From contig JBAZNV010000001.1 of NCBI GenBank assembly GCA_041649045.1, positions 19,756 to 83,755 of the forward strand: a DNA stretch of 64,000 nt, read 5' to 3'. Position 1 is the first letter of the stretch. Every line of letters starts with the position of its first letter. A model generated the notes under the pieces. The model saw only the letters and a list, made by a program, of their open reading frames with translations. It made no database searches and was not told the origin of the DNA. The stretch is from Candidatus Pacearchaeota archaeon (GTDB taxonomy: Archaea > Nanobdellota > Nanobdellia > Pacearchaeales > GW2011-AR1). A program made the position numbers and the translations under genes. Positions 1,760 through 49,390 of this stretch are shown in pieces.

Positions 1760-2956
1760 ATGGTAAAATTTGCACATCTTGCAGACTGCCATCTCGGGGG
1801 GTGGAGACAGGAGGAGCTTCAGAGTTTAAATTTCAAATCTTTTCAAAAGGTTGTGGAAATTTGTATATTAGAAAAGGTAGATTTTGTATTAATTTCAGGG
1901 GATCTTTTCGATTCAGCATATCCTCCCATAGAGGTTTTGAAAGAAACGTTTGCAGAATTTAAAAAATTTAAAGACGCCAATATTCCCATTTATCTTATTG
2001 CGGGGAGCCATGACTTTTCAGCCTCAGGAAAAACGTTTTTAGATGTTTTAGAAAAAGCAGGATTTTGCAAAAATGTTGGAAATTTTGAAATTCAGGAAGA
2101 TGGAAAAATAAAAATTTATCCATCTTTTTTTGGAGATATTGCAATTTTTGGATATCCAGGGAAGAAATCCGGGATGGAAGTCGAAGATTTAAAAAAAATT
2201 TTTTTTAGCTCCCTGCATCCATTTACGATTTTCATGTTTCACAGTACTGTCAAAGAGGTGGTAGGTAATCTTCCTGTGGATTTTATCGAAAAACAAAAAT
2301 TACCTCTTGCGAATTATTACGCGATGGGGCACATACATCAGGTTTTTGAAAAAAATGAAAGTGGTGTTTTTTATGTTTATCCAGGTCCATCTTTTCCAAA
2401 TAATTTTCAGGAGTTAGTTGATTTGAAGTGCGGAAGTTTTCAATTAGTAGAAGAATCATGCGGAAAAATAAAAACTAAAAATATAAAGATTCCTTTAAAA
2501 GAAGTTGTGTTTTTAGAGATAGAACTCAAAGAGAGTTTGACAGCGACGCAAAAAATAATTTCAGAAATAGATAAAATAAATTTGAATGATAAAATTTTTC
2601 TTTTAAAGCTCAAGGGGGTTTTGATGCAAGGCAAAACAGGCGATATCCATTTTAATGAAATTGAAGAATTTATTGCGAAAAAAGGCACTTTTTCTTTTTT
2701 AAGGAATATATCTTCGATAAAAATTCAGGAAACCGAATTGGATATATCTTCGTCTTCGGAAAACGTTGAAAATATGGAGAGGAAAATTATTGGCGAATAC
2801 TCTTCTAAAAATCCCGCTGATTTCAATAAATTTCTTCCTCAATTAATGGATGTGCTTTCCATGGAAAAAAACGAAGAGGAAAAGTCAATGATTTTCGAAG
2901 AAAGATTGGTGTCGGAATTAAAAAATATTTTAGAAATTAATAGTGTTTTGACATGA
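1760..2956 (+). CDS. mre11: DNA double-strand break repair nuclease Mre11
   Basis: Calcineurin-like phosphoesterase motifs (HLADCHLG, GDLFD, GSHD, GHIH); immediately upstream of rad50 with a 4-nt overlap. Confidence 0.85.
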   Translation: MVKFAHLADCHLGGWRQEELQSLNFKSFQKVVEICILEKVDFVLISGDLFDSAYPPIEVLKETFAEFKKFKDANIPIYLIAGSHDFSASGKTFLDVLEKAGFCKNVGNFEIQEDGKIKIYPSFFGDIAIFGYPGKKSGMEVEDLKKIFFSSLHPFTIFMFHSTVKEVVGNLPVDFIEKQKLPLANYYAMGHIHQVFEKNESGVFYVYPGPSFPNNFQELVDLKCGSFQLVEESCGKIKTKNIKIPLKEVVFLEIELKESLTATQKIISEIDKINLNDKIFLLKLKGVLMQGKTGDIHFNEIEEFIAKKGTFSFLRNISSIKIQETELDISSSSENVENMERKIIGEYSSKNPADFNKFLPQLMDVLSMEKNEEEKSMIFEERLVSELKNILEINSVLT

Positions 2957-4998
2957 TTATAAAAAAATTAATTATACAAAATATAAGAAGTTACGAGAAC
3001 CTCGAGATAGAATTTTCAAATGGAGCGACTCTTTTATCGGGAGATATAGGCTGCGGGAAAACATCGATCCTTTTGGGTTTGCAATTTGCTCTTTTCGGTC
3101 TTCAGCCGGGGCAGCGTGGGAGTTCTATTCTTAGACAGGGTACCGATTCGGCCTTTGTATCTTTGGAAATTGACATAGATGGGACAGTAATCAAACTTGA
3201 CAGAACACTGAAGAAATCAAAAAATGGCAGCATAACACAAGATTCTAATATTATTTATCTTGGAGATTCCAAAGAAGAACTTTCGACATCAGAAATGAAG
3301 GATAGAATAATAAAAATTTTAAACTATCCGAAAGAGTTTGCCAAAAAATCAAATTTACTTTACAAATATACGGTTTATACTCCACAGGAAGAAATGAAAT
3401 CGATAATACAAGAAAAGGCCGATGTCAGGCTTGATACCTTAAGGCACATTTTTGGAATTGACAGGTATAAAAGAATAAAGGAAAATTCACAAATATTTTT
3501 GCAAAAAATCAAAGATTCGATAAAGATTAAAGAAATTCTTTTTGCAGAATTAAATTTATTGAAAGAGAAAATGAACATGGAAAACGAAAAAAGAATATCG
3601 ATAGTACGGGAAGTAAATAACTTGAATTTTGAATATCAAAAATTATTGGACCAAAAAAATATGCTTGATGAAAAATCAAAACTTTATCAAAAAAAACTTG
3701 ATGAAAAAAAAGAGCTTGATTCGAAAATCTCGAACATGGAAGTTTTGATTCAGGGGAAAAAAGATTTTGAATCGAGAATGAAAAAAGAAATAACCTTGAT
3801 GCAAAAACAAATCAATGAAGAAATAGATTTTTCAGAAGATAAACTTCGAAACACGATAGAACTTTTGGATAAGCATAAAGTTCTTTTTGATGAAATTAAT
3901 TCAAATTTCTTGAAAATTAATTCACAAATTTCCGTCCTTAAATCCAAAAAAGAAGAACCTGTCCGACTTGGCGAAAGAATATCCTCGCTTGAAAATTGTC
4001 CCACATGTTTTCAGGTTGTAGGATATGAGCATAAGGAAAAAATTTCAAAAAGAATTCGTTTCGACATAGAAGATATTAATAGAGAACTTGAACAAAAAAT
4101 AATTGAAAGAGAAAATCTGAACAAAGAAATTGAAAGAGAGAAAGAAGTAATTCTTGGTTATGAAAAAGACAAGAGTGTTTTTCAACAGAATAAAATTAAG
4201 TTTGAGCATCAGCAGATGATTAAAACAAAAATCAAAAGCGATTCCTTTGTTTTAGACAGGACTTGCAACGAAATTTTTTCATTGACGCAGCAAATTAACG
4301 AAGAAAAAAATAGGCTTGAAATTTTTTCCAGAGAAATTGATCTTTTTGCCGGAATAATGGAGGAATTTCAGCAGATAAACGATCTTGTGAGAAAAAAAGA
4401 AATTTTGATTGCTACAAAAAAGAAGGAACTTGATTTGCTTGTAATAAAACTTGAAGAAATTCAATCTGAAATAAGTTCGAAAGAAAAAATAAGAGAGCAG
4501 GTGACTTATCTAATGGGGCTTGCCGATTGGATAGGAGACAAGTTTTTGAACATGATATTACTCACGGAAAAAAATGTTATGGCGAAGCTGAGGTCGGAGT
4601 TCTCGTCTATTTTTAGCGAATGGTTTTCTATGTTGGCTCCGGTTTCGTTATCGGTCAGGCTTGACGAGGAATTTACGCCGATAATTACAAATCAGGATTA
4701 TGAGATAGATTATGAATTTCTTTCCGGTGGCGAAAGAACAGCTGTAGCACTCGCGTACAGACTTGCCTTAAATCAGGTACTCAATTCTCTTTTGTCGAAA
4801 ATCAAGACAAAGGATTTGGTAATTCTCGATGAGCCAACGGATGGTTTTGCGTCAGAACAATTAGATAAAATGAGAGATATTTTTCAACAGCTGAATATGA
4901 AACAAATAATACTTGTGAGCCATGAGCAGAAAATCGAGGGGTTTGTTGATCATGTGATTCGCATAAAGAAAGATCATGTGAGTAAAATAGAAAAATAA
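2953..4998 (+). CDS. rad50: DNA double-strand break repair ATPase Rad50 (short form, 681 aa)
   Basis: Walker A GDIGCGKTS, central zinc hook CPTC within coiled coil, signature LSGGERTAVALAYRLAL, Walker B LVILDEPTDG. Confidence 0.85.
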   Translation: MIIKKLIIQNIRSYENLEIEFSNGATLLSGDIGCGKTSILLGLQFALFGLQPGQRGSSILRQGTDSAFVSLEIDIDGTVIKLDRTLKKSKNGSITQDSNIIYLGDSKEELSTSEMKDRIIKILNYPKEFAKKSNLLYKYTVYTPQEEMKSIIQEKADVRLDTLRHIFGIDRYKRIKENSQIFLQKIKDSIKIKEILFAELNLLKEKMNMENEKRISIVREVNNLNFEYQKLLDQKNMLDEKSKLYQKKLDEKKELDSKISNMEVLIQGKKDFESRMKKEITLMQKQINEEIDFSEDKLRNTIELLDKHKVLFDEINSNFLKINSQISVLKSKKEEPVRLGERISSLENCPTCFQVVGYEHKEKISKRIRFDIEDINRELEQKIIERENLNKEIEREKEVILGYEKDKSVFQQNKIKFEHQQMIKTKIKSDSFVLDRTCNEIFSLTQQINEEKNRLEIFSREIDLFAGIMEEFQQINDLVRKKEILIATKKKELDLLVIKLEEIQSEISSKEKIREQVTYLMGLADWIGDKFLNMILLTEKNVMAKLRSEFSSIFSEWFSMLAPVSLSVRLDEEFTPIITNQDYEIDYEFLSGGERTAVALAYRLALNQVLNSLLSKIKTKDLVILDEPTDGFASEQLDKMRDIFQQLNMKQIILVSHEQKIEGFVDHVIRIKKDHVSKIEK

Positions 4999-28914: not shown

Positions 28915-29008
28915 ATACCAAACGAGTGACCAAATCTTTTATTATGGGGTTACCTTATGAGTTACCAATATTAACAACATTTAAAAAACCCAGAAACCTC
29001 AGAAACAT

Positions 29009-29473: not shown

Positions 29474-29483
29474 ATTTGATTTT

Positions 29484-30437: not shown

Positions 30438-30525
30438 GTCAATATCCGACCAAAATTCCCGACCCCTGTGAACATTGAGAAATATCTGATTTTTTCATGT
30501 TTCATTCAATTCTACGCTGAAAAAA

Positions 30526-30544
30526 GCGAATATTCGCGAATATT
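30526..30544. promoter_or_regulatory. overlapping perfect palindromes (gcgaatattcgc / aatattcgcgaatatt) between convergent nuclease and methylase genes, followed by T-run
   Basis: Read directly from sequence; possible bidirectional terminator or operator. Confidence 0.4.
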
Positions 30545-30552
30545 TTCATTTT

Positions 30553-31200: not shown

Positions 31201-31274
31201 CTGCAAATTGAACAATGCAAAAATTGAACAGTAAACGTATAACTTATATGGAAACGTTAATAAAAATAAAAATT

Positions 31275-31775
31275 TTAAAATGGAGTGGTTATTTTTTGCT
31301 CTTTTTCTAATTTAAGTACCCAACTTATTATTTCAATATCTTTTCCAAGTTCGGTTAATATAAAATAGTGGGTCTTTGCTGCGAAATACTCCATTTGTCG
31401 CTTAGCCATTTTTGAACTCCATTCCTTAAATTTATCCATCACAATTTTATTATCTCCTTGTAAGTTGTCTACATTCCAAATATCCATTATCGAAATTTGT
31501 TTCAAAAGTCCTAATTCAATAAGGGAATAAAGATAATTATAAGCAGTGTTCTTTGACATAAATAATTTTGTTACAAATTCACCAATTCTTCCTGGAGAAT
31601 TATTAAGTAAAACTCCATACGTTTTCCTCAGTTTACTTTTCTCTTTTAACATTCTTTTAATTAACTCTTTTTTATAAGAATGACCTTCCATTGTTTCTTT
31701 GATTTCCAACGCAAGTTCTTCAAATGTCCTTGAGCCCTTCTCTCTTTTTTCAATTCTTATGTTTGGCACATCCAT
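31275..31775 (-). CDS. hypothetical protein with putative winged helix (element-encoded regulator/replication protein)
   Basis: Start at internal Met with GGAGG upstream; TAYNYLYSLIELGLLKQ helix. Confidence 0.4.
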   Translation of the reverse strand: MDVPNIRIEKREKGSRTFEELALEIKETMEGHSYKKELIKRMLKEKSKLRKTYGVLLNNSPGRIGEFVTKLFMSKNTAYNYLYSLIELGLLKQISIMDIWNVDNLQGDNKIVMDKFKEWSSKMAKRQMEYFAAKTHYFILTELGKDIEIISWVLKLEKEQKITTPF

Positions 31776-31831
31776 CTTCCTTGCCCTCCTTCTCCATAAT
31801 CTCAATCATCTTTTGCACAAGAGGATTCAGT

Positions 31832-31972
31832 TCACTTCTCTTCATCTCTACTATCCCCCTCTTCAATGAGAAATCTTATTGTGTCGCCTCGAGTTCGTCG
31901 AAATTTTTTTGCTAACCTGTCGAGCTTTTCTCTCGTTGCTGTATCTAACCTGAAATTAAATGTTGTATTCAT
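31832..31972 (-). CDS. ribbon-helix-helix (CopG/Arc family) protein, 46 aa
   Basis: Not in ORF track (below the 60-aa cutoff); MNTTFNFRLDTATREKLDRLAKKFRRTRGDTIRFLIEEGDSRDEEK fits beta-alpha-alpha RHH. Confidence 0.55.
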   Translation of the reverse strand: MNTTFNFRLDTATREKLDRLAKKFRRTRGDTIRFLIEEGDSRDEEK

Positions 31973-32025
31973 AATAATTACAAGGGAATATGGTATTTAC
32001 GGAGTTACAAACAAAAAGTATCTAA

Positions 32026-33243
32026 TTATTCCACCAGGTTAATAATTTGCTTTAGAGAGCTGACCACGTCCTTTCTTTCTCTTAAAAAACTCATCAGAGC
32101 TACTTCGGTGCTTTCAATTCTTGATTTGTTTACTTCAACTATTACCTCTCCTTCAAGTCTTCTGACCTCAAGTTGTTTTTCCATCTCTTGTTGCTTTCTA
32201 AGTAACTCTGCCATCGCCGAGCTTATAACATCAAGCTTTGTTTTCAATTCTTTGTTTTCATTCTCGGTTTTTACAAAATTATCTCCGGCAAGTTTTATTG
32301 TCTCATCATCTATCAATCCATTCATGTCAATATATCTATCTGGCATTTTTGATGATGCTGACCAGCCATATCTGTAAGAAATCTGAAATCTGTTAAGATG
32401 GTTCGCGTAATAAGTCGCTGATCCGTGCCTGAAAGTATGAGGTGAAATCATTCTACTAAGAAATTGTTTACCCATTCTGTTTGTATATTTTCTCAGGGTC
32501 CCGTAATTTATCGTACATAAAAAATCCTCTTCTCCAAATTTATTCATTTGCAGATATTCGTCAATTATTTTCGGATACAGCGGAAGATTTATTGTTCTCG
32601 GTTTAGTTTTTGAAATTCTTATTCTGACTTTGTAAACTCCATTTTCTTTCACGATGTCGCTCCTTTTGATGTTATAAAATTCTTCGATTCTTGCTCCACT
32701 GTCAAATAAAACAGCTAAAATAAATCGGTAAATTAATTTAGACGAATTTTCTATCAATCGGTCGTTCTCTTGTTTGCTCAAACTTCTGACTTCCGGCATT
32801 CTTGTACTTGTGTCGATGTATTGGACGAGTTTGGGATAATTCTCTTTGTCTCCGAGAAGATATTTGTAATATTTTCTGATAAACTTTTTTATTGTAGACT
32901 GCGTTTCCCATGTGTAAGGATTCCCTTTGGAAGATTTTACAATTCCTCTTTCAAGATTTAGAATAAATGTGTTCATATCGTCTTCTGTGACCTTATCGAA
33001 CGGTTTCTTTAACCACTCGCGATCCATATTCAAAAGTATACCAAGCATTCGCTGCAGCCTTCCAGGCTTGATTTTTCTCTTCTGTCCTTTAAGAATTGTC
33101 TTTCCGATTTCTGCGTCGTATAAAAACTGTAAAATCAAATTTCTGTTCTCAGGAATTAATAACCTGGTCGACCCTGATCTTAGTTTTTCCAACGATCGAT
33201 AATATTTATCTGGGTTTTGGAGTCTGACTATTTTGTCGTCCAT
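32026..33243 (-). CDS. int: tyrosine-type site-specific recombinase/integrase
   Basis: C-terminal catalytic residues: R...HTFRHGSAT...RYGW...Y; adjacent to tRNA gene. Confidence 0.8.
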   Translation of the reverse strand: MDDKIVRLQNPDKYYRSLEKLRSGSTRLLIPENRNLILQFLYDAEIGKTILKGQKRKIKPGRLQRMLGILLNMDREWLKKPFDKVTEDDMNTFILNLERGIVKSSKGNPYTWETQSTIKKFIRKYYKYLLGDKENYPKLVQYIDTSTRMPEVRSLSKQENDRLIENSSKLIYRFILAVLFDSGARIEEFYNIKRSDIVKENGVYKVRIRISKTKPRTINLPLYPKIIDEYLQMNKFGEEDFLCTINYGTLRKYTNRMGKQFLSRMISPHTFRHGSATYYANHLNRFQISYRYGWSASSKMPDRYIDMNGLIDDETIKLAGDNFVKTENENKELKTKLDVISSAMAELLRKQQEMEKQLEVRRLEGEVIVEVNKSRIESTEVALMSFLRERKDVVSSLKQIINLVE

Positions 33244-33327
33244 GGAATATTAACGAAAACCTCCGATATAGTTTTTTAGACTTGAAAAGTATCTAAAATG
33301 TTCCGCAAAACAGGGACAGAAACTTCC

Positions 33328-33343
33328 ATAGCCCCTCCAGGAT
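33328..33343 (+). repeat. att-like direct repeat (proximal copy, overlapping tRNA-Gln 3' end)
   Basis: Identical 16-mer to 19452..19467. Confidence 0.6.
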
Positions 33344-33401
33344 TCGAACCTGGGTCACGGGAGTCAGAGTCCCGTATCCTTGACCGCTAGACTAAAGGGC
33401 T
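33329..33401 (-). tRNA. tRNA-Gln (anticodon CUG)
   Basis: Manual fold: acceptor AGCCCUU/AGGGGCU, anticodon stem CGGGA/UCCCG loop CUCUGAC, T-loop GGUUCGAAUCC. Confidence 0.75.
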
Positions 33402-33556
33402 ATAGAAAATTCAGAAAAAGAAAGTTTAAAAGTTTAGTGGACCTTTAAATTCATTTGTAAAATTTTAGAGAAACTTGCTTGCGTGAATGGCAATGATTGT
33501 GAAAATTAGCGCATTCTTTTAAAAAACTTTATAATGTATGTTGGTTTTAATATTTC

Positions 33557-34109: not shown

Positions 34110-35012
34110 ATGATTGATGTCAAAGAAAAAAAAGAAAAAATTATTTCATTTCTTGAGGCTACGGGACCTTCGCTTCCTGTCAGGATTGCGGGAGTTATAC
34201 AAATGGAGGGGATGTTTGCGTCAGCAATTTTGTCTGAACTTTACAACGAAGGGAGAGTAAAGATGAGCAATATGAGGGTCGGTTCTTCCCAATTATTTTT
34301 TTTGCCGGGTCAGGAGAAGCGACTTGAAGAGCATATTGAAAATTTGAAGCCGGTCGAGAAAGAAGCTTACTCTATGATTAAGGATAAAAAAGTTTTGGAT
34401 GATGAGAAGTTGGAGCCTGCGATAAGGGTTGCTTTGTCGAGCATAAAAGATTTCGTTAAAAGTTTTGAGCACGAAGGCAAGTTGATGTGGAAGTATTCGT
34501 TTTTGACGGATGAGGAGTTAAATGAGGTTTTTCATTCGACGAATGAAGAGAGGGAAAATAAAAAGGAAAGTGAAAAGATTGATAAAGAAATGGTCGTGGC
34601 GGAAGAAAAGGCAGTGAAAAAGAAAGAAAAAAAAGTAAAGCCAAAGACGGAGTTTGAAGAGGTTGGTGTTGAGAAAAAAAATGAAGGGATTTTTGACGAG
34701 ATGAATATGGAGTTTTTTAATGAGGTGAAGAATTATCTCGCGAAAAAGGAAGTAAAAATATATGAGGAAATTCAGGTTGACAGGAAAGAGGTTGTTGCTA
34801 AAATTAGTTTTGAGGCCAAGATCGGCAGGTTTAATTTTTTATTGATAGCCAAAAATAAAAAAACAATATCCAAAGAAGAATTGAATATCGTGATGCAGAG
34901 AACGAATTATCATAAGATGCCATGTCTTTTGGTGACGAGGAAAGAACTTTCGAAGTCGGTTCAAAATTTGGTTAAAGATAATAATATGATAAAACTTGAG
35001 TTTTTGGGGTAG
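34110..35012 (+). CDS. hypothetical protein: N-terminal winged helix, Lys/Glu-rich coiled coil, C-terminal globular domain
   Basis: wH-like LPVRIAGVIQMEGMFASAILSELYNEGRV; no confident family. Confidence 0.4.
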   Translation: MIDVKEKKEKIISFLEATGPSLPVRIAGVIQMEGMFASAILSELYNEGRVKMSNMRVGSSQLFFLPGQEKRLEEHIENLKPVEKEAYSMIKDKKVLDDEKLEPAIRVALSSIKDFVKSFEHEGKLMWKYSFLTDEELNEVFHSTNEERENKKESEKIDKEMVVAEEKAVKKKEKKVKPKTEFEEVGVEKKNEGIFDEMNMEFFNEVKNYLAKKEVKIYEEIQVDRKEVVAKISFEAKIGRFNFLLIAKNKKTISKEELNIVMQRTNYHKMPCLLVTRKELSKSVQNLVKDNNMIKLEFLG

Positions 35013-37608: not shown

Positions 37609-38388
37609 ATGGCGAAAATAAAATTTGGGCCAGGAGGATTGGGTTCAATAAAAGATGCGATTGTTAATTTGTATGAATATCATCGGCTGGGAATTAATGC
37701 GTGCGAGGTTGAGTTCGTATACCGAGTTTATATAAATAAAGAACAGGCAATTGAAATTGGGAAGACGGCGAAGAATTTAGGGATAGGTCTTTCGGTGCAC
37801 TGTCCGTATTATATAAATTTGAATTCTGCTGATTTTGAAAAAATAGAAGCATCAAAAAAAAGAATTTTAAATTGCTGTGAAATTGGGCACTATCTCGGAG
37901 CAAAAAAAATAGTTTTTCATTCGGGATTTTATGGCAACAGGGATTATGAAGAAACTTACGCAAATATCCACAACGCAATTGTTGAAATAAAAAAAGGAAT
38001 AGAAAAAAATAAATGGGACGTCGAACTTTGTCCCGAAATAATGGGCAAGGCGAATGTCTTTGGCTCAATTGAAGATATACAGAGACTTGTGGTTGAGACG
38101 GGTTGTAGTTTTTGCATAGATTTTGCTCATATTCTTGCAAGGTATGGAGAAAATAAATTTAATGAGGTCGCTAAAGCATTTCCACAGGAAAGTTGGCATT
38201 GCCATTTCTCGGGGATTGTATACGGAGAGAAGGGAGAGAAGAATCATATCAAGACGAGCGAAAAAGAATGGGAGGAGTTGTTGAATTTTTTGAAAACTTT
38301 AGATAAAGATGTTGTGATAATTAATGAAAGTCCGACGCCGGTGGAAGATAGCGTGATGGGCAAGAAAGTTTTTGGGGAATTAGATTAA
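37609..38388 (+). CDS. nfo: endonuclease IV (AP endonuclease family 2)
   Basis: HCPYYINLNS, ELCPEIMGK, CIDFAH motifs. Confidence 0.7.
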   Translation: MAKIKFGPGGLGSIKDAIVNLYEYHRLGINACEVEFVYRVYINKEQAIEIGKTAKNLGIGLSVHCPYYINLNSADFEKIEASKKRILNCCEIGHYLGAKKIVFHSGFYGNRDYEETYANIHNAIVEIKKGIEKNKWDVELCPEIMGKANVFGSIEDIQRLVVETGCSFCIDFAHILARYGENKFNEVAKAFPQESWHCHFSGIVYGEKGEKNHIKTSEKEWEELLNFLKTLDKDVVIINESPTPVEDSVMGKKVFGELD

Positions 38389-38604
38389 TTTTTCGAACTC
38401 CTCTTTTGATAAATTAATTTGTTTTAATATTTCAAGCAAAAGTCCTTTTCCTAAGTCTTCATTATTGTGAACTGGCACAACTGTTCTTCTGCCGTCGGGA
38501 TGCTTGAATCTGATATGACTTCCTTTGCCATAAATTTTTTCAAAACCAATTTTTTCTAATACTTTGCACATCTCTTTTCCAGAAACTTTCTTAAGTTTTG
38601 TCAT
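38380..38604 (-). CDS. hicA: HicA toxin (mRNA interferase)
   Basis: KVLEKIGFEKIYGKGSHIRFKHPDGRRTVVPVH...ILKQ. Confidence 0.75.
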   Translation of the reverse strand: MTKLKKVSGKEMCKVLEKIGFEKIYGKGSHIRFKHPDGRRTVVPVHNNEDLGKGLLLEILKQINLSKEEFEKLI

Positions 38605-38605
38605 T

Positions 38606-38836
38606 TTAATTTTCTCGAGGTTTTTCAACTTGAACTCTTTGAATCCCAACAAATTTCATTGGTTTTACATCTTCTTGATCCGCTTCGAGACAAGTCTCAA
38701 TTGCCTCTTTGATTCTTTCTGTGACTTCTTGCAAAGTTTTTCCTTGAGTGTAGCATCCTTCGATTTCGGGAACTTTCGCTACAAAAATTCCATCTTCGTC
38801 TTCCTGGATTATTACATCAAATGTTTCTTTTCCCAT
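38606..38836 (-). CDS. hicB: HicB antitoxin (N-terminal domain only, 76 aa)
   Basis: FDVIIQEDEDGIFVAKVPEIEGCYTQGKTLQEVTERIKEAIETCLE. Confidence 0.7.
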   Translation of the reverse strand: MGKETFDVIIQEDEDGIFVAKVPEIEGCYTQGKTLQEVTERIKEAIETCLEADQEDVKPMKFVGIQRVQVEKPREN

Positions 38837-39408: not shown

Positions 39409-40605
39409 ATGAAAAGAAATTTGCTTTTTGTTCCTTTCGTCGCAGTTTTGACTCTTTTTGTTGTTGGTGCTTCGGCGGCTGAACTTGCGAATAGTGACTT
39501 TGAAACAACATTCAATGGTGTTGAATTATCTGATGATGTTCTCTTCGCGGGGATGGTCGGAGATTCGGTGCCAGTGAGAGTAACTTTCAATGCACTTGAA
39601 GATTCGAGTAATGTTCGTGTAAGGATCAGAATGGAAGGCATAAGGGAAGACATATCTGCTTCGACTGAAAGATTTGATATTATCAGCGGAGTAACGTATA
39701 CAAAGTCTTTAACTTTAGAACTTCCAAGTGATTTGGCGGACACTGATAAGGAGTATACTCTTTATGTTGAAATAGTTTCGGCTGACGGCAGAACTGAAAG
39801 AATGTACTCGATTGTTATGCAAAGAGAATCGTACGAAGTTGAAATTTTGGCTGTTGACTATAACTCAAGAGTTGCGGGCAACGAAGTTGTTCCTGTATCT
39901 GTTGTTGTTAAGAATTCCGGCTTTAATCGATTAGATGATGTTTTCGTTTTGGTTTCTATTCCTGAACTTGGGATAATGTCAAGAGGTTACCTTGGTGACT
40001 TAATTCCAGTAGAAGATTATAGTGACGATTACGAAGATGAAGAAGATTCTGTATCGAAAACTGTTTATTTCAGAGCTCCAGAAAATGTCAAGAGCGGCAT
40101 TTACGAAATGGAAATAATAGTTTACAATGACGATTTCGAAACATCTGTCAAGAGATTGATAAGTGTTGGAGAAGATGGCGTCGTAAATGTTATTGCAGCC
40201 GTAAAGAACAAGGATTTAAAAGCAGGAGAAACTGTAACTTACGATTTGATTATCGTGAATTCTGCAGACAATGTTAGGGTTTTCAACTTGGAAGAAATTT
40301 CAGGAAATGATTTGACTGTTGTTGTTCCTTCGGTAATTACCGTTGGTCCAAAATCCAGTGAAACCGTTTCAATTAGCGTGACAGCTGATGAGAATGCTGA
40401 AGTTGGGACACGAACGTTTTCGGTAGAAGTTGATGGCGAATCTGTAGTCTTCGGTGCTAATGTTGTTGAAGATGGTTATTCGACATCCGTAGTCGCCTTG
40501 ACTGTGATACTTGTTATCGTGTTCATTGTTCTTCTTGCTGTGCTAATAATTCTTCTTACGAGAAAGGAAAAGCCAATGGAAGAAGTAGAAACGAGCTACT
40601 ATTAA
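39409..40605 (+). CDS. cell-surface protein (signal peptide, Ig-like beta-rich ectodomain, C-terminal TM anchor)
   Basis: MKRNLLFVPFVAVLTLFVVGASAA signal; C-terminal VVALTVILVIVFIVLLAVLIILL. Confidence 0.55.
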   Translation: MKRNLLFVPFVAVLTLFVVGASAAELANSDFETTFNGVELSDDVLFAGMVGDSVPVRVTFNALEDSSNVRVRIRMEGIREDISASTERFDIISGVTYTKSLTLELPSDLADTDKEYTLYVEIVSADGRTERMYSIVMQRESYEVEILAVDYNSRVAGNEVVPVSVVVKNSGFNRLDDVFVLVSIPELGIMSRGYLGDLIPVEDYSDDYEDEEDSVSKTVYFRAPENVKSGIYEMEIIVYNDDFETSVKRLISVGEDGVVNVIAAVKNKDLKAGETVTYDLIIVNSADNVRVFNLEEISGNDLTVVVPSVITVGPKSSETVSISVTADENAEVGTRTFSVEVDGESVVFGANVVEDGYSTSVVALTVILVIVFIVLLAVLIILLTRKEKPMEEVETSYY

Positions 40606-40843: not shown

Positions 40844-41302
40844 ATGGAGAAAATGGAAAGACAAAGAATAATACAACCAGAGAAAGAAATTATAATTTAT
40901 CATATTGGAAAATACGAAGATGGGGGACGGGGGCATTTTGGACGAGAATTTGGAGTGTGGTCGCAAATATATCCGTGTCATCTAGAACCTGATAATAAGG
41001 GAGGGTTGATTTATGTTTTGGGAAAGGGCAGTAGGGTGGGCAATTTTTCGGGCAATTTTTTTAGACAAGAATTAATGGGGGCTCTTAGGGCTTTATACAA
41101 TGAACCTTCCCTATCAGTATTAAGAATGTATAGGGTCTGGGATGCAGACTCTTATATTTCTGTAGAAGAAGAGGATAAACTAATTTCGCCAGGGAAAGAA
41201 TTTGTTGATGAGTTATTGGAAACTTCTGCAGTTAGTTTAAAATTAAGAACTGAACCAGTAGGTCAATTAATTAAGGAGGGGTTGATAGAGTTAGCTAGAT
41301 AA
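40844..41302 (+). CDS. hypothetical protein (152 aa)
   Basis: ORF immediately downstream of element A; first of a five-gene co-oriented block. Confidence 0.4.
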   Translation: MEKMERQRIIQPEKEIIIYHIGKYEDGGRGHFGREFGVWSQIYPCHLEPDNKGGLIYVLGKGSRVGNFSGNFFRQELMGALRALYNEPSLSVLRMYRVWDADSYISVEEEDKLISPGKEFVDELLETSAVSLKLRTEPVGQLIKEGLIELAR

Positions 41303-41341
41303 GATGGGAGAAAATTTAGAAAGAGAAATTGGGAGAGAAAA

Positions 41342-41599
41342 ATGAAGAGAAAAATATCTGGAAATTTTAGAAGAGAAGAAACTGGGGCAGATATTGTTGC
41401 CGATGTAGTTTTTAGAGTGTTATTGCCCGCAGCGTTTTTAATTGGAACTAACTATTTTACTAGATGTATGGTCGAAAGAGAAATGAGAAGTTTTTATGAA
41501 CCAATTATAAATTCATCTACTCCAGAAATCGTTCATTCCGACGATAGACTTTATGAACAAATAAGGAATTGGTATAAAAGAGAAAATGGTAGAAAATAA
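41342..41599 (+). CDS. hypothetical protein (85 aa)
   Basis: ORF, part of co-oriented block. Confidence 0.35.
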   Translation: MKRKISGNFRREETGADIVADVVFRVLLPAAFLIGTNYFTRCMVEREMRSFYEPIINSSTPEIVHSDDRLYEQIRNWYKRENGRK

Positions 41600-41605
41600 A
41601 AGAAA

Positions 41606-41932
41606 ATGATACATAGATTATATAGAAATGGAATAAGGAAAATAACTATTATAGATGGCAATGATTTTGTTGGAAGAATAGAAGGAAATATTGAAACAAA
41701 AACGGTGCAAAGGGGAATTTATCATGGAAGAAGGGAATCTGATACCTTATATTATTTAAATACAAAAGACGAGAAGTTGAGAATTTCATTTTGTGGTCGT
41801 GGAAGAATAAGGGATATTAGATCATTTTTTCAGTCCTCAATGTCTGAGTATTATTGGGTAATTAATTTAAAGGCTTTGCAAAATTTAAATCCGAATTACA
41901 AAATATCCAGTCATTTACGGCAAATCAAATAA
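41606..41932 (+). CDS. hypothetical protein (108 aa)
   Basis: ORF, part of co-oriented block. Confidence 0.35.
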   Translation: MIHRLYRNGIRKITIIDGNDFVGRIEGNIETKTVQRGIYHGRRESDTLYYLNTKDEKLRISFCGRGRIRDIRSFFQSSMSEYYWVINLKALQNLNPNYKISSHLRQIK

Positions 41933-41937
41933 ATAAA

Positions 41938-42330
41938 ATGAGAAAAGTAATAGACTATCAAATTGGAAGGTTAGAGGGGGATTTGACGAAGAATCACAAA
42001 TTTATAGTGGAAGAAAGAGACTCTGTCGATGGTTTGGTTTTGGTTTATCATTCTCATATTGTTGATAATTTTGGACAACCTCTTCATAAAAAAATTGTAA
42101 AAATATTCAGTATAAAAAAAGATAGTATATTGGGAGGCGGGTTTGTATTCACTGATGCCTCAATCTTAAATTTTTGTGACTATTCGACAGATTTTGGTGC
42201 TGTTCCGCAATCGGTTCTTGAAAAGTTTGGAGGATTACTTTTACCAAGATATCAAAACGTAGGAATTGAGAGAATTAAAATTGATGTCGATGAAAGAGAT
42301 TTAATGGATTGGTGGAAGGAGATTGTGTGA
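41938..42330 (+). CDS. hypothetical protein (130 aa)
   Basis: ORF, part of co-oriented block. Confidence 0.35.
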   Translation: MRKVIDYQIGRLEGDLTKNHKFIVEERDSVDGLVLVYHSHIVDNFGQPLHKKIVKIFSIKKDSILGGGFVFTDASILNFCDYSTDFGAVPQSVLEKFGGLLLPRYQNVGIERIKIDVDERDLMDWWKEIV

Positions 42331-42596
42331 AGATGGAAGATTGGTGGGGATATCGAGTTATGGAAATGGAAAAAGCAGTTAGAGATATGGGGGTTAGTTC
42401 TGCATTTTTGGCGCATTATTCTCAATTAAGAGGATTAGTCAAGGGAGACGTCGAGAATCTAGAATTAAAAATAGCTATTCAAAGATACAGGGCTTTTAGA
42501 AGTTTATATGAAGTTAAGAATAGTGGAAGGTTGGCAATGTTTGATGGGCAAGTTTCTGCGTTGACTAAAGGATTGAGTAGAATTTGTTTAATATAA
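42309..42596 (+). CDS. hypothetical protein (95 aa)
   Basis: ORF overlapping previous by 22 nt. Confidence 0.35.
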   Translation: MVEGDCVKMEDWWGYRVMEMEKAVRDMGVSSAFLAHYSQLRGLVKGDVENLELKIAIQRYRAFRSLYEVKNSGRLAMFDGQVSALTKGLSRICLI

Positions 42597-42771: not shown

Positions 42772-45636
42772 TTATACCTTCAAACTTACAACTTTAGAAA
42801 TATTTTCTTGCATTGAGACTCCGTACAAGCTTGTGGCTTCGGAGATTAGTGTATCGTTATGTGTGATAATTATATACTGACCTGTCGTTTTATATTTTTT
42901 TATAAGGGCTGCGAGAAGTTCTGAGTTATGTTTGTCGAGGGCTGCGTCAATCTCATCAAAGATATAAAATGAATATGGGCTATATTCCTGAATTGCGAAA
43001 ATAAGAGATAGGGCGACGAGAGTTTTTTCTCCTCCTGACAAACTTGTAACGTCGAAATATTTTCCCCTGGAAACTTTTACTAAAATATTTAATCCTCCTT
43101 GAAATGGTTCTTTTTTATTTTCTATCTCAAGAAATACTTCTCCTTTTTTTGAGAGTTGTTTGAAATTCCTGGTGAAAAACTCGTTTACTGAGTTTAAGGT
43201 GCCAAAGAAAGCCTTTTTTTTCTTTTTATCAATTTCTGAAATAATATTTTGAATTTTTGATTTTTCGTTTTCGATTGTTTCGACTTTTTTCTTTATCGAT
43301 TCACATTGCTCCTGAACTTGTTCAAAAATTTCCAGGGCTCTCATATTTACGCTTCCGAGCTGCGAAATTTTGAATTGTGCTTTTTGAAGCCGATCTTTTA
43401 TTTCTTCTATTGGGAACTGAAAAATTTCGACATTTCCGAATTCGGATATTTCGGATTTCAATGATTCCATTTGGGCTGAAAACTGAGCCTTTTGTATTTT
43501 GTTGGAATTAGTCTTGTCTTCGAGGTTTTTAATTGTGTGTGACAATCCAATAATATCAGTTTCAATCGCTTTTTGTTTATCTTGGATTTCGTTTTTTTGA
43601 GAAAAGAATTTCTGGAATTTTTCGTAAAGTTGTTGTTCTTCGTTTTCTTTTTTTGCAAGAAGTTTTTCTTTTTCAGAAATTAGTATAGAAATTTTTTTTA
43701 TTTCAACGAGAGAGTCCTCGATGTCCCTTATGGTTTTTTTCATGTCAACGGTCAACCTGTTTATTTCGCGTTCCTTGACGGTGACTTCTGTATCAATATT
43801 AATATCCTGAAATGAAATTTCCTGAAGTTTAAGTCTTGCTTCGTCATACTTTTCTTCAACGTCTTTAAGTTTTTCAAAATCATTCTTCAAATTTTGTAGT
43901 TTTTCTTTTTGTCTGGAAATTTCATTCCTATTTTCTTCAATTTCTTTACGAATTTTTTCAATCTGATTTTTTTTGTCATCAATATTTTTTATTTTTATTT
44001 TATCAATGTTTAATTCATTAATTTTGAAATTTAATTTTGAAATTTCTTCTTTTAGTGATGAAATTTTATTTTTATCCTCTTCTTTTGTTTCAAGATTTTT
44101 TGCGAGTTCTTTTTTTGCATTCAAAATTTTTTCATTGGCTTCGAAGGAAATTTTATGCTTGTGATCTTGCGTGACTTCTTGTTTGCATATTGGGCAGTTT
44201 TGAAGTTTTATGACATCTTCCCTTAATTTTTCTTCTCGTTCAATTTCTTTTTCAAGGATAGCATTATTTTTTTCTTTTTCCAAAATTTCTTTTTCTGACT
44301 CAGCAAAAGATTGTTCAATTTTTTTCATTCTTTGGAGGGCTTCTTCTTTTATCTTTTCAATTTGGTTAATATCTTTTTCATATTTTATTTCATTGGCGAG
44401 GGATTCAATATTGTTTTTTAATAACTTTATTTCCTGTTCATTTTCTATGATTGATTTTTCTTTTTCTTCTTTTTTATTTTCGAAGGTTGAAATTTCCGAT
44501 TTTAACATGTAAAATTTTCTTCTTTGTTGTTCCAGAATATCAAATTTTTCTTGCAAATTCTTTGAAAGTTCTTTTTGTTTTTTTATTTCAGGAGAATTTT
44601 TTTGTATTTGGGAAATTTCTTCATTTAATTTGCTGATTTTTTCTTTAATTTGGGAAATTTTTTCATTTCCCTGAATTTTTCTATTCTCGTAGTTTTCAAG
44701 CCTTACCGTGAGTCCAGCCAAATCCGCCTTTAAATCTGAAAGTTCTTTGTGAAGATTTTCTTGTTCATTACTTGTTGAAGATTGTATTTGTTTATTTATT
44801 ACATATATTTTATTTTGCAATTCTTCGACGGCAAGATTCTTCATATTAATTTCTTTTTTTATTTTATCGATTTCTTTTTCATAATTTTCTATTATTTTAT
44901 TTATTCCCCAGATTTCTTTTTCTTTTTCTTTTATATTCTTTGAAATTATTGTAGCTTTGCATTTTTTTATTGTTTCTTCGAGTTTTTGATGAGAAATCGC
45001 TTCTTGTTTTTCTTTCTCCAAGTTTTTTAGGAAAGCGTTTCTTTCTCTTAAAATTGCCGAGACTTCTTTCAGGCTTTCTTCGGCTTTTTCAAGTTCTCGC
45101 AAACTTTTATGTTTTCTTGTTTCATATATGGAAATTCCGGCGACTTCTTCTATTATTTGTCTTCTTTCTTCGGACGTTGATTTCACGAGAGATTGTATTT
45201 CTCCCTGCAAAACAATGTTGAACCCGTTCGGGTCAATTCCTCCTTGCGCCAAAAGCTCGATTAATTCCTGTCTTGTTTTAGTTTCGTTGTTTATTTTGTA
45301 TATAGATAGCCCATTTTTTCTTACAATTCTTTTTATTGTAAGTTCGTTAGAATTTATAGAGAACGTCTTGTCGGTGTTATCGAAAATGATTTCAACAAAA
45401 GCTTCGTTTGAGCCTTTGTAATTTTTGTTTCCCGAGAAAAGGAGATTTGCGGCTTTTGCGGCCCTTATGGATTTAATAGAAAGCCTTCCCAGGACGAAGC
45501 ATAATGCGTCTGTGATATTAGATTTTCCTGAGCCATTTGGTCCGACAATAATATTCATTGAATTTTCGAGAGGGATTTCGGTTTTCCTTGCAAAACTTTT
45601 GAAACCTTGCATCACAATCTTTTTTATGTAAGTCAT
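42772..45636 (-). CDS. SMC-type ATPase (954 aa) with Rad50-like CxxC zinc hook at coiled-coil midpoint instead of a hinge
   Basis: SMC-type head motifs FKSF, IVGPNGSGKSNITDALCFVLG, LSGGEKTLVALSLIFAIQ, FYIFDEIDAALD; CPIC at residue 481 of 954. Confidence 0.7.
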   Translation of the reverse strand: MTYIKKIVMQGFKSFARKTEIPLENSMNIIVGPNGSGKSNITDALCFVLGRLSIKSIRAAKAANLLFSGNKNYKGSNEAFVEIIFDNTDKTFSINSNELTIKRIVRKNGLSIYKINNETKTRQELIELLAQGGIDPNGFNIVLQGEIQSLVKSTSEERRQIIEEVAGISIYETRKHKSLRELEKAEESLKEVSAILRERNAFLKNLEKEKQEAISHQKLEETIKKCKATIISKNIKEKEKEIWGINKIIENYEKEIDKIKKEINMKNLAVEELQNKIYVINKQIQSSTSNEQENLHKELSDLKADLAGLTVRLENYENRKIQGNEKISQIKEKISKLNEEISQIQKNSPEIKKQKELSKNLQEKFDILEQQRRKFYMLKSEISTFENKKEEKEKSIIENEQEIKLLKNNIESLANEIKYEKDINQIEKIKEEALQRMKKIEQSFAESEKEILEKEKNNAILEKEIEREEKLREDVIKLQNCPICKQEVTQDHKHKISFEANEKILNAKKELAKNLETKEEDKNKISSLKEEISKLNFKINELNIDKIKIKNIDDKKNQIEKIRKEIEENRNEISRQKEKLQNLKNDFEKLKDVEEKYDEARLKLQEISFQDINIDTEVTVKEREINRLTVDMKKTIRDIEDSLVEIKKISILISEKEKLLAKKENEEQQLYEKFQKFFSQKNEIQDKQKAIETDIIGLSHTIKNLEDKTNSNKIQKAQFSAQMESLKSEISEFGNVEIFQFPIEEIKDRLQKAQFKISQLGSVNMRALEIFEQVQEQCESIKKKVETIENEKSKIQNIISEIDKKKKKAFFGTLNSVNEFFTRNFKQLSKKGEVFLEIENKKEPFQGGLNILVKVSRGKYFDVTSLSGGEKTLVALSLIFAIQEYSPYSFYIFDEIDAALDKHNSELLAALIKKYKTTGQYIIITHNDTLISEATSLYGVSMQENISKVVSLKV

Positions 45637-45730: not shown

Positions 45731-46654
45731 GTGGGAAATGAAATAATACTGGTTGACATAGGGTCTTCGACTGTTAAAATGTATTTGGCTAACGAAAATC
45801 AAATTTTGCTTAAAAAAATAGAAAATATTTTCTTTAATGTTGAATTTTCGCCCGATGGATTAAGTCCAGATAACGAAAAAAAGTTAGTTGAATTTCTATT
45901 GAATTTAAAGAAGGATTACCCGTCGGTCCCAATTTTTATTTATGCAACTGCGGTTTTTAGAAAATTGAATGTAGAAGCCAGAAAAAAATTATCAGATAAA
46001 ATTTATGAGAAAACAGAACTAATTTTTAATTTGATTTCGCACGAGATGGAAAATTTTTATTTAGAACAGGCGCTGCTTGACAATTTTGACTTGAAAGAAC
46101 CGGTGCTTTTAATTAATGTCGGCGGAGGATCTACCGAATTTGTTGTCGTAAATAATAAAAAAAGTATTGAGAGAAAAAATATTGATATTGGCGTTGGCGC
46201 GTTGTTAAAAAAATTTCCTGAAGTTAATAACGAACTTTCGTCTATTGATAAAAAAATTATTATTGATTTTATAGAGCCTGAACTTCCCGATATAGAAAAC
46301 AAACCATCTAAAGCATTTTATACTGGAGGGGAACTAAGTTATATGCAACTTGCTAATTATCCTCTGAAGAAAAATATTTTTTTTAATGATTCTGCTCATC
46401 CGAGCGTTATAAGTTTTGAGGACTTTTCAATAAAGAATGATGAAGTTTTTTCTAAAATTAAACTTTCTGAACTTGAAAAATTAATGCCAGATTCTCCTAA
46501 GTGGATGCATGGAGCCAGAGTTTGTTCTGCCTTTGTCGAGGCAATCTGCAAGAAGTATAACATTGGGCATATAATTCCATCTGATTCAAATTTAATAGAC
46601 GGAATTTTTGCGCATCAATTTAAAGATAAGGCCTTGAGATTGTCAGGGGAATAG
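45731..46654 (+). CDS. Ppx/GppA-family phosphatase (ASKHA fold)
   Basis: ILVDIGSSTVKMYL and INVGGGSTEFVV phosphate-binding motifs. Confidence 0.55.
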   Translation: MGNEIILVDIGSSTVKMYLANENQILLKKIENIFFNVEFSPDGLSPDNEKKLVEFLLNLKKDYPSVPIFIYATAVFRKLNVEARKKLSDKIYEKTELIFNLISHEMENFYLEQALLDNFDLKEPVLLINVGGGSTEFVVVNNKKSIERKNIDIGVGALLKKFPEVNNELSSIDKKIIIDFIEPELPDIENKPSKAFYTGGELSYMQLANYPLKKNIFFNDSAHPSVISFEDFSIKNDEVFSKIKLSELEKLMPDSPKWMHGARVCSAFVEAICKKYNIGHIIPSDSNLIDGIFAHQFKDKALRLSGE

Positions 46655-46714: not shown

Positions 46715-47368
46715 TTAGTATAATTTTTTCTGCTCCTTTTCTTTTTCTAATTTCTTTACAGTATCCCAAGAGAAACGAATTAAGTTTTTATATTTTGGAT
46801 TTTTATAATTTTCTTTGACGAATTTTTGTGTTTTAGGGTCGGACGGATAGCCGCTTCCAAAATCAATTCCATATTCTTTTTTCAATTTTTTTACTTCGGT
46901 TTCTCGCATTTCTTTGGCGACTATTGATGCTGCCGAAACAATCGGATGATTGAAATCGGCTTTGTGTTCGCATTTCATTGTTATTAGTTCTGTTTTTTTT
47001 AGCAATTTAAAAACATCCTCGTTCCATGCGATTAAATTTACCGAAGGGCAGTCCAGAATTATTTCAACTGGCTCGTCGATGTTCCCCATGAGCTTATTTA
47101 TAATTTTTGCAGCTTTTATAGCTTCAGTGTAGTTTAGGTTTGCAGAATTGTCAATTTCATTCGGGTGGGTTATCTCGAAATGGTATTTGTATTTTCTCTT
47201 TATTTTTTTGGAGAGCATTTTTCTTTTTTTAGGGGGAAGAAGTTTTGAATCTTTTGCGCCCCATTTTTTTAAAATATCGTTATCTTTTTTTTCTGCCAAA
47301 ACTCCTGATAGTATCATGGGACCCAAAACTGGTCCTCTGCCGGCGTCGTCAATTCCTATTATTTTCAT
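46715..47368 (-). CDS. rnhB: ribonuclease HII
   Basis: MKIIGIDDAGRGPVLGPM N-terminal catalytic motif. Confidence 0.8.
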   Translation of the reverse strand: MKIIGIDDAGRGPVLGPMILSGVLAEKKDNDILKKWGAKDSKLLPPKKRKMLSKKIKRKYKYHFEITHPNEIDNSANLNYTEAIKAAKIINKLMGNIDEPVEIILDCPSVNLIAWNEDVFKLLKKTELITMKCEHKADFNHPIVSAASIVAKEMRETEVKKLKKEYGIDFGSGYPSDPKTQKFVKENYKNPKYKNLIRFSWDTVKKLEKEKEQKKLY

Positions 47369-48235: not shown

Positions 48236-49390
48236 ATGGAGATTTCTGAGTTTAAGGGCTCTTTTGGAAAACTTGTTGAAAAAGAAGACAAGGAACATGG
48301 GAAATATACTTCTTTTATCCCAAGCAAATTACCTCCAAAGTTTGAATACACTCCTGCATTAGTTTTAGCTCTTTCAAAAGCAGATAGTACTTTAAGTAAA
48401 CTTTCTGGAGCCGGCCTCCTTCTCCCAAATCCAGAATTATTAATCATTCCATATTTAAAAAAAGAAGCACTATCAAGTTCAAGGATAGAAGGGACTCAAA
48501 TTTCTCTTTCAGAATATTTTTTATCTGAGGCGAAAGGAATAACAAAGGAGGATATTGAGGCTACGGAAGTAGGGAATTATATTCAAGCAATTAGACACAC
48601 ATTGAAAGAAATTGAAACGAAACCAATTACCTCGGATTTAATTAAAGAAATGCATAAAATTTTACTTAAAGGAGTAAGGGGAGACGAGCTTCTTCCCGGA
48701 AATTTTAGACCTGTACAAAATTGGATAGGTCCAAAAAATACTAAAATCAAAGATGCAACCTTTGTACCTCCGCCAAAAGAAGAAGTGGAAAGATTAATTC
48801 AAGAATTAATAGACTATCTTAATACCAATGATGAAGTCCCATTATTAATAAAATGTGCTTTAATGCACTATCAATTTGAAACAATTCATCCATTTTGTGA
48901 CGGAAACGGAAGAATTGGAAGAGCACTAATTACTCTTTATCTTTGTAAAAAAAATAAAATTTCAAAACCTCTACTTTACGCAAGTGATTATTTCGAGAAA
49001 CATCGAAGAGATTATTATGATATACTTTTGACTGCAAATAAAACCGGAAAGTTTGAGATTTGGATTAATTTTTTTTTAGAGGCTATTAAAGTTCAATCAG
49101 AAGATGCCTTAGAAAGAACAATTAAAATTCAAAAACTTCGAGAAGATTATCAGAAAAAAATAAAAAATCATAAGCAAGCAGTTAATCTTCTTAATGTAGT
49201 TGATGCTTTATTCCTGAATCCTTTTGCTCAAATTAATCAAATATCTTCAACGCTGGATGTTACTTATCCAACAGCAAAAAAAGCTGTTGATAATTTAATT
49301 AAGCTTGGAATATTGAAGTCAGTTAATAATGAAACTGAGAGAAATAAGCTTTTTGTTGCTCACGAAATACTTGAAATAATTACATTGTAG
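48236..49390 (+). CDS. fic: Fic-family protein (AMPylator-like) with inhibitory S-x-x-I-E-G helix and C-terminal winged helix
   Basis: HPFCDGNGRIGR Fic motif; SSRIEGT inhibitory motif upstream. Confidence 0.8.
   Translation: MEISEFKGSFGKLVEKEDKEHGKYTSFIPSKLPPKFEYTPALVLALSKADSTLSKLSGAGLLLPNPELLIIPYLKKEALSSSRIEGTQISLSEYFLSEAKGITKEDIEATEVGNYIQAIRHTLKEIETKPITSDLIKEMHKILLKGVRGDELLPGNFRPVQNWIGPKNTKIKDATFVPPPKEEVERLIQELIDYLNTNDEVPLLIKCALMHYQFETIHPFCDGNGRIGRALITLYLCKKNKISKPLLYASDYFEKHRRDYYDILLTANKTGKFEIWINFFLEAIKVQSEDALERTIKIQKLREDYQKKIKNHKQAVNLLNVVDALFLNPFAQINQISSTLDVTYPTAKKAVDNLIKLGILKSVNNETERNKLFVAHEILEIITL

Follow-up and report, generated by a model that had tools for sequence, protein, structure and literature searches.

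Probable condensin-type SMC gene of a Candidatus Pacearchaeota archaeon with a Rad50-like zinc-hook motif at the position of the hinge

The roles proposed for the SMC hinge beyond holding the arms together have been debated for two decades and include those of a DNA entry gate, of DNA binding and of signalling to the heads. The related ATPase Rad50 carries a zinc hook, and in the hook of Pyrococcus furiosus (PDB 1L8D) the zinc is held by four cysteines from two chains. To our knowledge, the irrelevance of the hinge fold has been argued mainly from a single engineered chimera of Bacillus subtilis, Smc(Zh). In this chimera the hinge has given way to the zinc hook of P. furiosus Rad50 and growth is normal (Burmann et al., 2017; PMC5344682); Rad50 is also functional with its hook replaced by the MukB hinge (PMC6969161). 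Since the engineered Smc(Zh) works in B. subtilis, a natural SMC with a hook is feasible (PMC5344682). Here we describe a candidate of this kind, encoded in a stretch of 64,000 nucleotides of Candidatus Pacearchaeota archaeon (assembly GCA_041649045.1, contig JBAZNV010000001.1, positions 19,756 to 83,755 of the forward strand), the whole of which is referred to as the window. The smc gene occupies positions 42772..45636 on the minus strand, and we consider it very probable that it is the lineage's own condensin-type SMC, in which the hinge has been swapped in place for a Rad50-type hook.

The gene is complete, its open reading frame and translation comprising 954 codons plus stop, and the product is 100% identical to an NCBI protein from a metagenome-assembled genome named 'chromosome segregation SMC family protein [Candidatus Pacearchaeota archaeon]'. 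The motif set of an SMC-type ATPase (Walker A, Q-loop, signature, Walker B, D-loop and H-loop) is complete in the protein, all features of the gene lying on the minus strand. Alignment to the Pyrococcus Smc heads delimits an N-terminal head lobe (residues 1-168; 45133..45636) and a C-terminal one (residues 801-954; 42775..43236). The former contains FKSF at residue 12, the Walker A motif GPNGSGKS at residues 32-39 (45520-45543), Arg58 (45463-45465) and the Q-loop LQGE (45199-45210), and the latter the signature LSGGE at residues 866-870 (43027-43041), the Walker B and D-loop stretch FYIFDEIDAALD at residues 890-901 (42934-42969) and the H-loop THN (42856-42864). The FKSF, Walker A, signature and D-loop motifs listed in a first-pass annotation made from the sequence alone are all present in the translation. 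Residues K38, R58, Q144, S867, G868, G869, D894, E895, D897 and H926 are invariant in 119 orthologues sharing 61-82% identity. That annotation had also placed a CPIC motif at the midpoint of the protein, which is correct; it occupies residues 481-484 (44185..44196, an offset of 2 nt from the approximate 44183-44194 given there) and is the sole CxxC of a 954-aa protein with five cysteines in total.

The heads are of SMC type. The best stretch of the NCBIfam match to TIGR02169 (SMC_prok_A), which scores 513.3 bits, runs from residue 3 to 475 on model positions 1-465. The protein falls short of the curated equivalog cut-offs of both TIGR02169 (513.3 vs 729.4 bits) and TIGR02168 (498.5 vs 567.35 bits), a shortfall that fits a missing hinge. 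Among the other NCBIfam models, the best Rad50 model gives 92.6 bits (cut-off 700), the RecN model 43 bits and the SbcC model 28 bits. The ASRP model NF045487 reaches 106.9 bits (cut-off 300), with the match confined to the C-terminal half, and membership in the ASRP/ClsN family was rejected on this score. In a search of PDB sequences, the Pyrococcus Smc heads were matched at 4e-99 and Rad50 heads at 4e-13. The earlier assignment of the heads to the SMC rather than the Rad50 type is hence well founded (513 bits vs at most 93; 4e-99 vs 4e-13).

No hinge could be recognised. A Pfam scan of the window protein returned SMC_N (2e-45) and no SMC_hinge. A dedicated hinge profile, built by jackhmmer from related hinge-bearing SMCs, matched nearly all full-length SMCs of 1030-1200 aa at 1e-46 to 1e-89 and a few divergent hinges at 1e-19 to 1e-35; it missed two proteins of 1124-1135 aa (P0255 and P0258) and gave zero matches among the listed hook-type proteins. 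Nor did a hinge appear on alignment, so that its absence, as originally proposed, is supported. In a profile-profile alignment of the hook family with 62 hinge SMCs, residues 1-954 were aligned to positions 1-1156 with Prob 100, an E-value of 4e-196 and 34% identity. The hinge family is longer by 202 residues, of which ~165 lie between query residues 442 and 495, where the hinge is located, and the rest consist of small gaps in the arms. Since the arms are collinear over their full length and the main gap coincides with the hinge, we regard the protein as a canonical SMC from which the hinge is precisely missing. In an exhaustive search of representatives, hinge-bearing SMCs start at 37% identity to the query, and the nearest of them that bear a source name are mostly labelled Woesearchaeota.

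The two arms were delimited by AlphaFold2 helices together with collinearity with the corresponding arms of hinge SMCs. The N-terminal arm helix covers residues 169-476 (~308 aa; 44209..45132) and the C-terminal one residues 490-800 (43237..44169). A full-length AlphaFold2 model based on a 119-sequence alignment has a mean pLDDT (predicted local distance difference test) of 72.5 and places helices at residues 169-288, 291-340, 354-416, 423-476 and 490-588; its top fold matches are condensin Smc4/Smc2, Smc5/6 and P. yayanosii Smc. The arms are predicted to form an antiparallel coiled coil of ~310 residues each way. A conserved discontinuity in the N-terminal arm (residues 341-353; 44578-44616), with an invariant P349, and one seen in the AlphaFold2 model of the C-terminal arm (residues 605-616; 43789-43824) are at a similar distance from the hook and probably pair with each other.

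The apex of the protein resembles the hook of Rad50. The window also encodes a Rad50 of 681 aa (2953..4998, plus strand), with a CPTC motif at residues 349-352 (nt 3997-4008), and an adjoining Mre11 (1760-2956), in agreement with the first-pass annotation, which had recognised a true Rad50 with its own CPTC hook beside mre11. On the SMC side, hhalign, BLASTP and PDB sequence matches define a Rad50-like module of residues 436-529 (44050..44331), made up of the apex hairpin and ~45 coiled-coil residues per side. Within it, the AlphaFold2 models place the apex loop KLQNCPICKQEVT (residues 477-489; 44170..44208) between the two arm helices, and the CPIC it contains would provide, judging by its conservation, putative zinc ligands, two per protomer. 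At the family level, the apex regions of 141 SMCs and 120 Pacearchaeal Rad50 proteins, each taken with 45 residues on either side of the CxxC, were aligned by hhalign with an E-value of 1.9e-16 (Prob 98.7, score 84), whereas ten off-register coiled-coil controls gave 0.015 or worse and scores of 9-17. When the four CxxC columns were masked, the two apices still matched at 1.1e-10, and single flanks matched the Rad50 apex at 7e-9 (C-terminal) and 2e-5 (N-terminal). As the controls are clean and the masked alignment remains significant, the similarity goes beyond coiled-coil composition or the motif alone. Judged from these alignments, the entire ~90-residue apex module of the SMC is homologous to the Rad50 hook. 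BLASTP against the window Rad50 pairs 'KLQNCPICKQEVTQDHKHKIS' with 'SLENCPTCFQVVGYEHKEKIS' (16/39 identities, E 5e-7).

Comparison with known structures leads in the same direction. When the central 126 residues were searched against PDB sequences, only Rad50 hooks were on top (6ZFF and 1L8D of P. furiosus, E 0.004), with CPIC aligned on CPVC. An AlphaFold2 model of this fragment, based on a 26-sequence alignment, has a pLDDT of 91 and consists of two helices (positions 2-58 and 71-125) connected through a beta-bridged hairpin that carries the CPIC. Searched against the entire PDB, the model is closest to 1L8D_B, the zinc hook of P. furiosus Rad50 (template modelling score 0.70/0.86, root-mean-square deviation 2.2 A, E 5e-3), followed by 1L8D_A and the human Rad50 hook 5GOX, so that the top three are all Rad50 hooks; the E-values of these fold matches are modest because helical hairpins are common. 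Taken together, the AlphaFold2 models, the fold match and the PDB sequence matches favour the Rad50-style hook within a continuous antiparallel coiled coil that had been read from the sequence at first. As for Pfam, PF04423 (Rad50_zn_hook) is precomputed on the orthologues P0471 and P0485, and the window protein is not matched at E <= 1.

Concerning the origin of the hook, Q-x-V and HK-x-KI are common to the SMC hook and the resident Rad50 lineage and are absent from P. furiosus Rad50. This is suggestive of a donor within the lineage's own Rad50, though the positions are too few for proof, and the resident Rad50 family is likely to have been the source of the hook module.

The hook motif is strongly conserved. 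A CPxC at the midpoint was found in 120/120 of the closest database clusters, and among 237 collected relatives the proline is present in 233. The first-pass annotation had made its reading depend on conservation of the CxxC in orthologues, and both cysteines are in fact retained in 237/237 relatives. A scan of GTDB species representatives yielded 79 loci, labelled Pacearchaeota, Woesearchaeota, Nanoarchaeota or plain 'archaeon', and a single CPxC is present in 75/75 of those that cover the midpoint. Given this invariance in both samples, the CPxC is not a chance motif. In the exhaustive search of representatives, every full-length match of 946-1023 aa aligned in a single stretch, down to ~33% identity, carries a CPxC, with the exception of P0196 (968 aa, 34% identity), where a divergent hinge is present and a CxxC is lacking.

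The length of the arms is also nearly fixed. Exactly 954 codons were counted in 39 of the 67 full-length genes from the GTDB loci. The distance from Walker A to the first cysteine is 445-449 residues in 211/237 relatives and that from the first cysteine to the signature motif 385-386 in 200/237, with arm lengths within four residues in ~90% of relatives. Such near-constancy fits the 'tuned arm' idea (PMC5344682).

Some of the relatives deserve separate mention. The contig L043 (JBNMFJ010000021.1), labelled 'Patescibacteria group bacterium', encodes a hook SMC with 55% identity to the query, and odd labels were also attached to a Rad50 homologue (P0339, Ignavibacteria) and a hinge SMC (P0170, Nitrospiraceae); all three are probably mis-binned DPANN contigs. 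Inteins of ~530 aa reside within the Walker A motif of the hook-type proteins P0036, P0126 and P0131 and of P0417, which belongs to a short type described below. The insertion follows the lysine (GPNGSGK|C...HN|S) in P0036, P0131 and P0417 and lies one residue later (GPNGSGKS|C...) in P0126. Precomputed PF14528 and PF14890 matches identify the inteins of P0036 and P0417, and those of P0126 and P0131 are deduced from the ~530-aa insert and its C...HN|S ends. Inteins in the P-loop fit an essential housekeeping gene.

The genomic position of the gene points to an ordinary SMC as well. Upstream, on the same strand, is the gene of RNase HII (46715..47368, minus strand; Pfam RNase_HII 1e-41), which is present in 52/79 related loci and no more than 1.5 kb from smc in 43/79. 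Downstream and convergent is the gene of a FixG_C/Ig-like protein (39409..40605, plus strand; Pfam match), probably secreted in view of an N-terminal hydrophobic, signal-peptide-like stretch read by eye. A FixG_C-like homologue occurs in 57/79 hook-SMC loci and also downstream of a hinge-type SMC (L008) and of short-type SMCs (L093 and L094). On orthologous contigs the gene order is RNase HII, smc, FixG_C/Ig-like, DUF7557, adenylate kinase, AP endonuclease, Toprim-domain (DnaG-like) and EF-1alpha/EF-2. A Mre11 homologue was not found in the 79 related SMC loci, and the Mre11 of the window adjoins Rad50 and not smc. On the basis of shared position and collinearity, the hook SMC can be viewed as the orthologue of the ordinary SMC, changed in place. 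The first-pass annotation had considered a condensin 'substitute', a proposal that does not stand, given that collinearity and the shared downstream neighbour identify the gene as that of the condensin-type SMC itself. The positional argument is thin on the hinge side, because one hinge-type locus (L008) was examined.

In the arrangement we propose, each chain would fold back to form the antiparallel coiled-coil arm of ~310 residues suggested by the models. An SMC ABC-ATPase head, intact with respect to its motifs, would be situated at one end of the arm, and the CPxC hairpin, present in the sequence and predicted as a fold, at the other. Two hairpins may then share one Zn2+ through four cysteines, two per chain, and in this way form a constitutive homodimer like that of Rad50. 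ATP would engage the heads, a kleisin would presumably close the ring, and the chromosome could be organised and segregated in the manner of Smc-ScpAB. We give about even odds that no other SMC is present and that the hook SMC works together with a kleisin.

A number of observations weigh against the proposal that an ordinary SMC has exchanged its hinge for a dimerising hook. The AlphaFold2 heads are mediocre, with a pLDDT of 30-45 around Walker A. Zinc binding and dimerisation are attributed to the protein by homology to the Rad50 hook. Orthologues without a hook exist at the same position, and a dimeriser at the apex may not be strictly required in the clade. The separation of hook-type from hinge-type heads in neighbour-joining trees is weak (30/100; 26/60). 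In these trees of head domains, with the window Rad50 as outgroup, the hook proteins of a first sample formed a clade without any hinge SMC at a bootstrap of 30/100; with a larger sample the split from hinge SMCs was recovered in 26/60, and the distant outgroup and the divergent hinge SMC P0174 joined inside the hook group. Tree support being weak and only suggestive, orthology rests on collinearity and synteny.

The kleisin searches also speak against a Smc-ScpAB-like complex, within their scope, which covered ~10-20% of any one genome and is too little to claim absence. Neither ScpA nor ScpB (PF02616, PF04079) appears among the precomputed Pfam matches for ~84 kb surrounding the gene, and the ScpA N-terminal motif was not found in 1.38 Mb of related loci. 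For the same two proteins, a motif scan of the window and Pfam scans of 26 window open reading frames and four from L008 returned nothing. A metagenome scan with the hinge-type P0147 gave two loci, neither with an adjacent ScpA. Two open reading frames were tried as kleisin candidates and received no support, namely a 247-aa unannotated neighbour in L008, with no kleisin-like PDB match, and a 300-aa product encoded at 34110-35012 (plus strand) of the window between the tRNA-splicing endonuclease and Alba genes, with no Pfam and no PDB match.

The alternative that survives best is that of a specialised SMC paralogue, either resembling ClsN/ASRP or serving in repair, which would not be engaged in bulk chromosome organisation and would exist beside an ordinary hinge-type Smc-ScpAB encoded elsewhere. 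Archaea do have hook-bearing SMC-related proteins with separate roles (ASRP/ClsN; PMC9389158), and the patterns of our contig scan, being specific for hook proteins, would miss a hinge SMC of 37% identity elsewhere in the genome, a further point against a hinge swapped in place. Nevertheless, the protein scores 107 bits with the ASRP model (cut-off 300), whereas SMC_prok_A gives 513, and both full-length arms are collinear with those of hinge SMCs. The downstream neighbour is common to the hook SMC and the one hinge-type locus examined, and the named nearest hinge SMCs are mostly labelled Woesearchaeota. Moreover, among the 79 loci retrieved with hook-specific patterns none pair within one assembly, save one gene split over two contigs. 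We therefore consider a paralogue improbable.

A second alternative concerns the apex, where the CPxC and nearby histidines could form an intramolecular C2H2-like zinc knuckle that caps the arm of a monomer, with no intermolecular hook. In the window protein CPIC, H492 and H494 do provide four potential ligands in one chain, but just 79 of the 237 relatives have the second histidine, and the knuckle was rejected on account of this poor conservation. The first histidine, located eight residues past the second cysteine in 216/237, is spaced as in P. furiosus Rad50, where four cysteines of two chains bind the zinc, and the homology with the Rad50 hook reaches ~40 residues out on both sides. It appears very unlikely that the motif is a knuckle. 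Finally, a role as a stand-alone SMC-like sensor directed against plasmids or phages, as for LmuB of Lamassu or JetC of Wadjet, is scarcely credible, since the PADLOC matches in its favour (mad3 142, LmuB 88 and JetC ~23 bits) are far under the SMC score and represent superfamily cross-matches, the window Rad50 also hitting LmuB at 101 bits, while no LmuA/LmuC or JetA/B/D-like genes are adjacent and, despite an integrase island ~10 kb away, the housekeeping context is conserved in dozens of species, unlike patchy defence islands. The 'second' or 'standalone' Lamassu/Wadjet-like protein initially suggested can be set aside on these grounds, i.e. low PADLOC scores, no flanking effector or kleisin-like defence genes and the housekeeping context.

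The orthologues without a hook are SMC-headed proteins of ~796-809 aa in the same clade, with intact heads, no hinge, no CxxC and an unconserved apex. Such short-type SMCs were found at L094 (3878-6277) and L093 (957-3362) and among the proteins P0139, P0402-P0413, P0410 and P0427. The short SMC of L094 keeps the order RNase HII, SMC, FixG_C-like and AP endonuclease, and L093 shares the genes downstream. The short forms have the appearance of positional orthologues that later lost the hook together with ~75 residues of each arm, and the whole is suggestive of a progression from a hinge via a hook to an apex with neither.

The surroundings of smc in the window differ in certain details from those of the related loci. 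A gene of the Ppx/GppA family (45731-46654, plus strand) splits the usual adjacency of RNase HII and smc, its homologue being present in 2/79 related loci. Between smc and the FixG_C-like gene are five small open reading frames of 152, 85, 108, 130 and 95 aa (40844-42596, plus strand), with zero Pfam matches and zero homologues in the 79 related loci, which look like a strain-specific insertion. A Fic/DOC-family protein with Fic_N, Fic and SoFic-like C-terminal domains is encoded at 48236-49390 (plus strand) and has a homologue in 2/79 related loci. The precomputed Pfam annotation (locus L092) shows a HicA toxin and a HicB-like antitoxin at ~38380-38836 (minus strand), beside the AP endonuclease gene. 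A probable integrated element extends over ~27600-33402 and adjoins tRNA-Gln (33328-33402, minus strand). In order of position, it encodes a ParA-like ATPase (27604-28653), a small MarR/HTH protein (28648-28914), a HARE-HTH protein (29415-30437) and, on the minus strand, a tyrosine integrase (32026-33243), and it also bears a fragment of an N6/N4 DNA methyltransferase.

Turning to the wider meaning, it is an open proposition, to which we give even chances, that an order-level DPANN lineage, the Pacearchaeota-type Nanoarchaeota, organises its chromosome with a hingeless SMC whose hook was captured from the resident Rad50 and, in some sublineages, was later lost. A natural version of the chimera would make the conclusion about the hinge fold an evolutionary and not an artificial one. 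The hook SMC has long been stable, with relatives down to ~33% identity, at least 75 species representatives and an almost invariant arm length. Were it the sole SMC and did it work with a kleisin, the roles proposed for the hinge beyond dimerisation (such as DNA binding or a DNA gate) would be dispensable in nature, and selection would fix the length of the arm and not the fold of its apex. The family would also illustrate clearly how two branches of the SMC superfamily can exchange a module, and its apex fragments, full proteins and mini-SMC relatives constitute ready test material. For annotation purposes, it should be kept in mind that hook SMCs fall under the SMC equivalog cut-offs and that public records give them generic SMC or SMC-family names.

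Compared with known systems, the hook SMC shares with canonical Smc (Smc-ScpAB, TIGR02169; Pyrococcus Smc 5XEI/4I99) the heads, the ATPase motifs, arms of ~310 residues with paired discontinuities and the housekeeping position. It differs in being hingeless and ~200 aa shorter, in carrying a CPxC hook instead and in scoring under the TIGR02169 cut-off. With the Rad50/SbcC hook (1L8D, 6ZFF, 5GOX; PF04423) it has in common the CPxC hairpin at the apex, the histidine at +8, profile homology and the best PDB fold; however, its heads are of SMC type, its gene is not beside Mre11 and its arms are longer than those of the 681-aa resident Rad50.

The engineered Smc(Zh) likewise combines SMC heads and arms with a Rad50 hook, and the arm-length periodicity of the chimera is near that of the wild type (PMC5344682). 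The hook SMC, in contrast, is natural, conserved in many species and apparently equipped with the Rad50-type hook of its own lineage. The 'hinge-less' SMCs of marine Actinobacteria (Sussfeld et al., 2025; PMC12153180) also have SMC-type heads and no hinge, but they are bacterial, lack a CxxC and are nearer to the ~800-aa hookless orthologues than to the hook SMC.

The first-pass annotation had called an SMC-headed protein with a hook unusual, a statement that needs to be qualified, because the ASRPs (PMC9389158) are already archaeal, SMC-related and hook-bearing. These proteins (ClsN/coalescin, Sph1/2; NF045487) belong to the SMC superfamily and resemble the hook SMC in their central zinc-hook motif and in having no hinge; yet they form a separate and shorter family (model length 593), and the hook SMC stands much nearer to canonical SMC. 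The searchable full-text literature, the coverage of which leaves out most subscription journals, yielded no account of a zinc hook in a natural canonical SMC. The combination of an SMC-like protein with a hook has precedent in itself, and what appears to be new is a canonical SMC orthologue with a hook.

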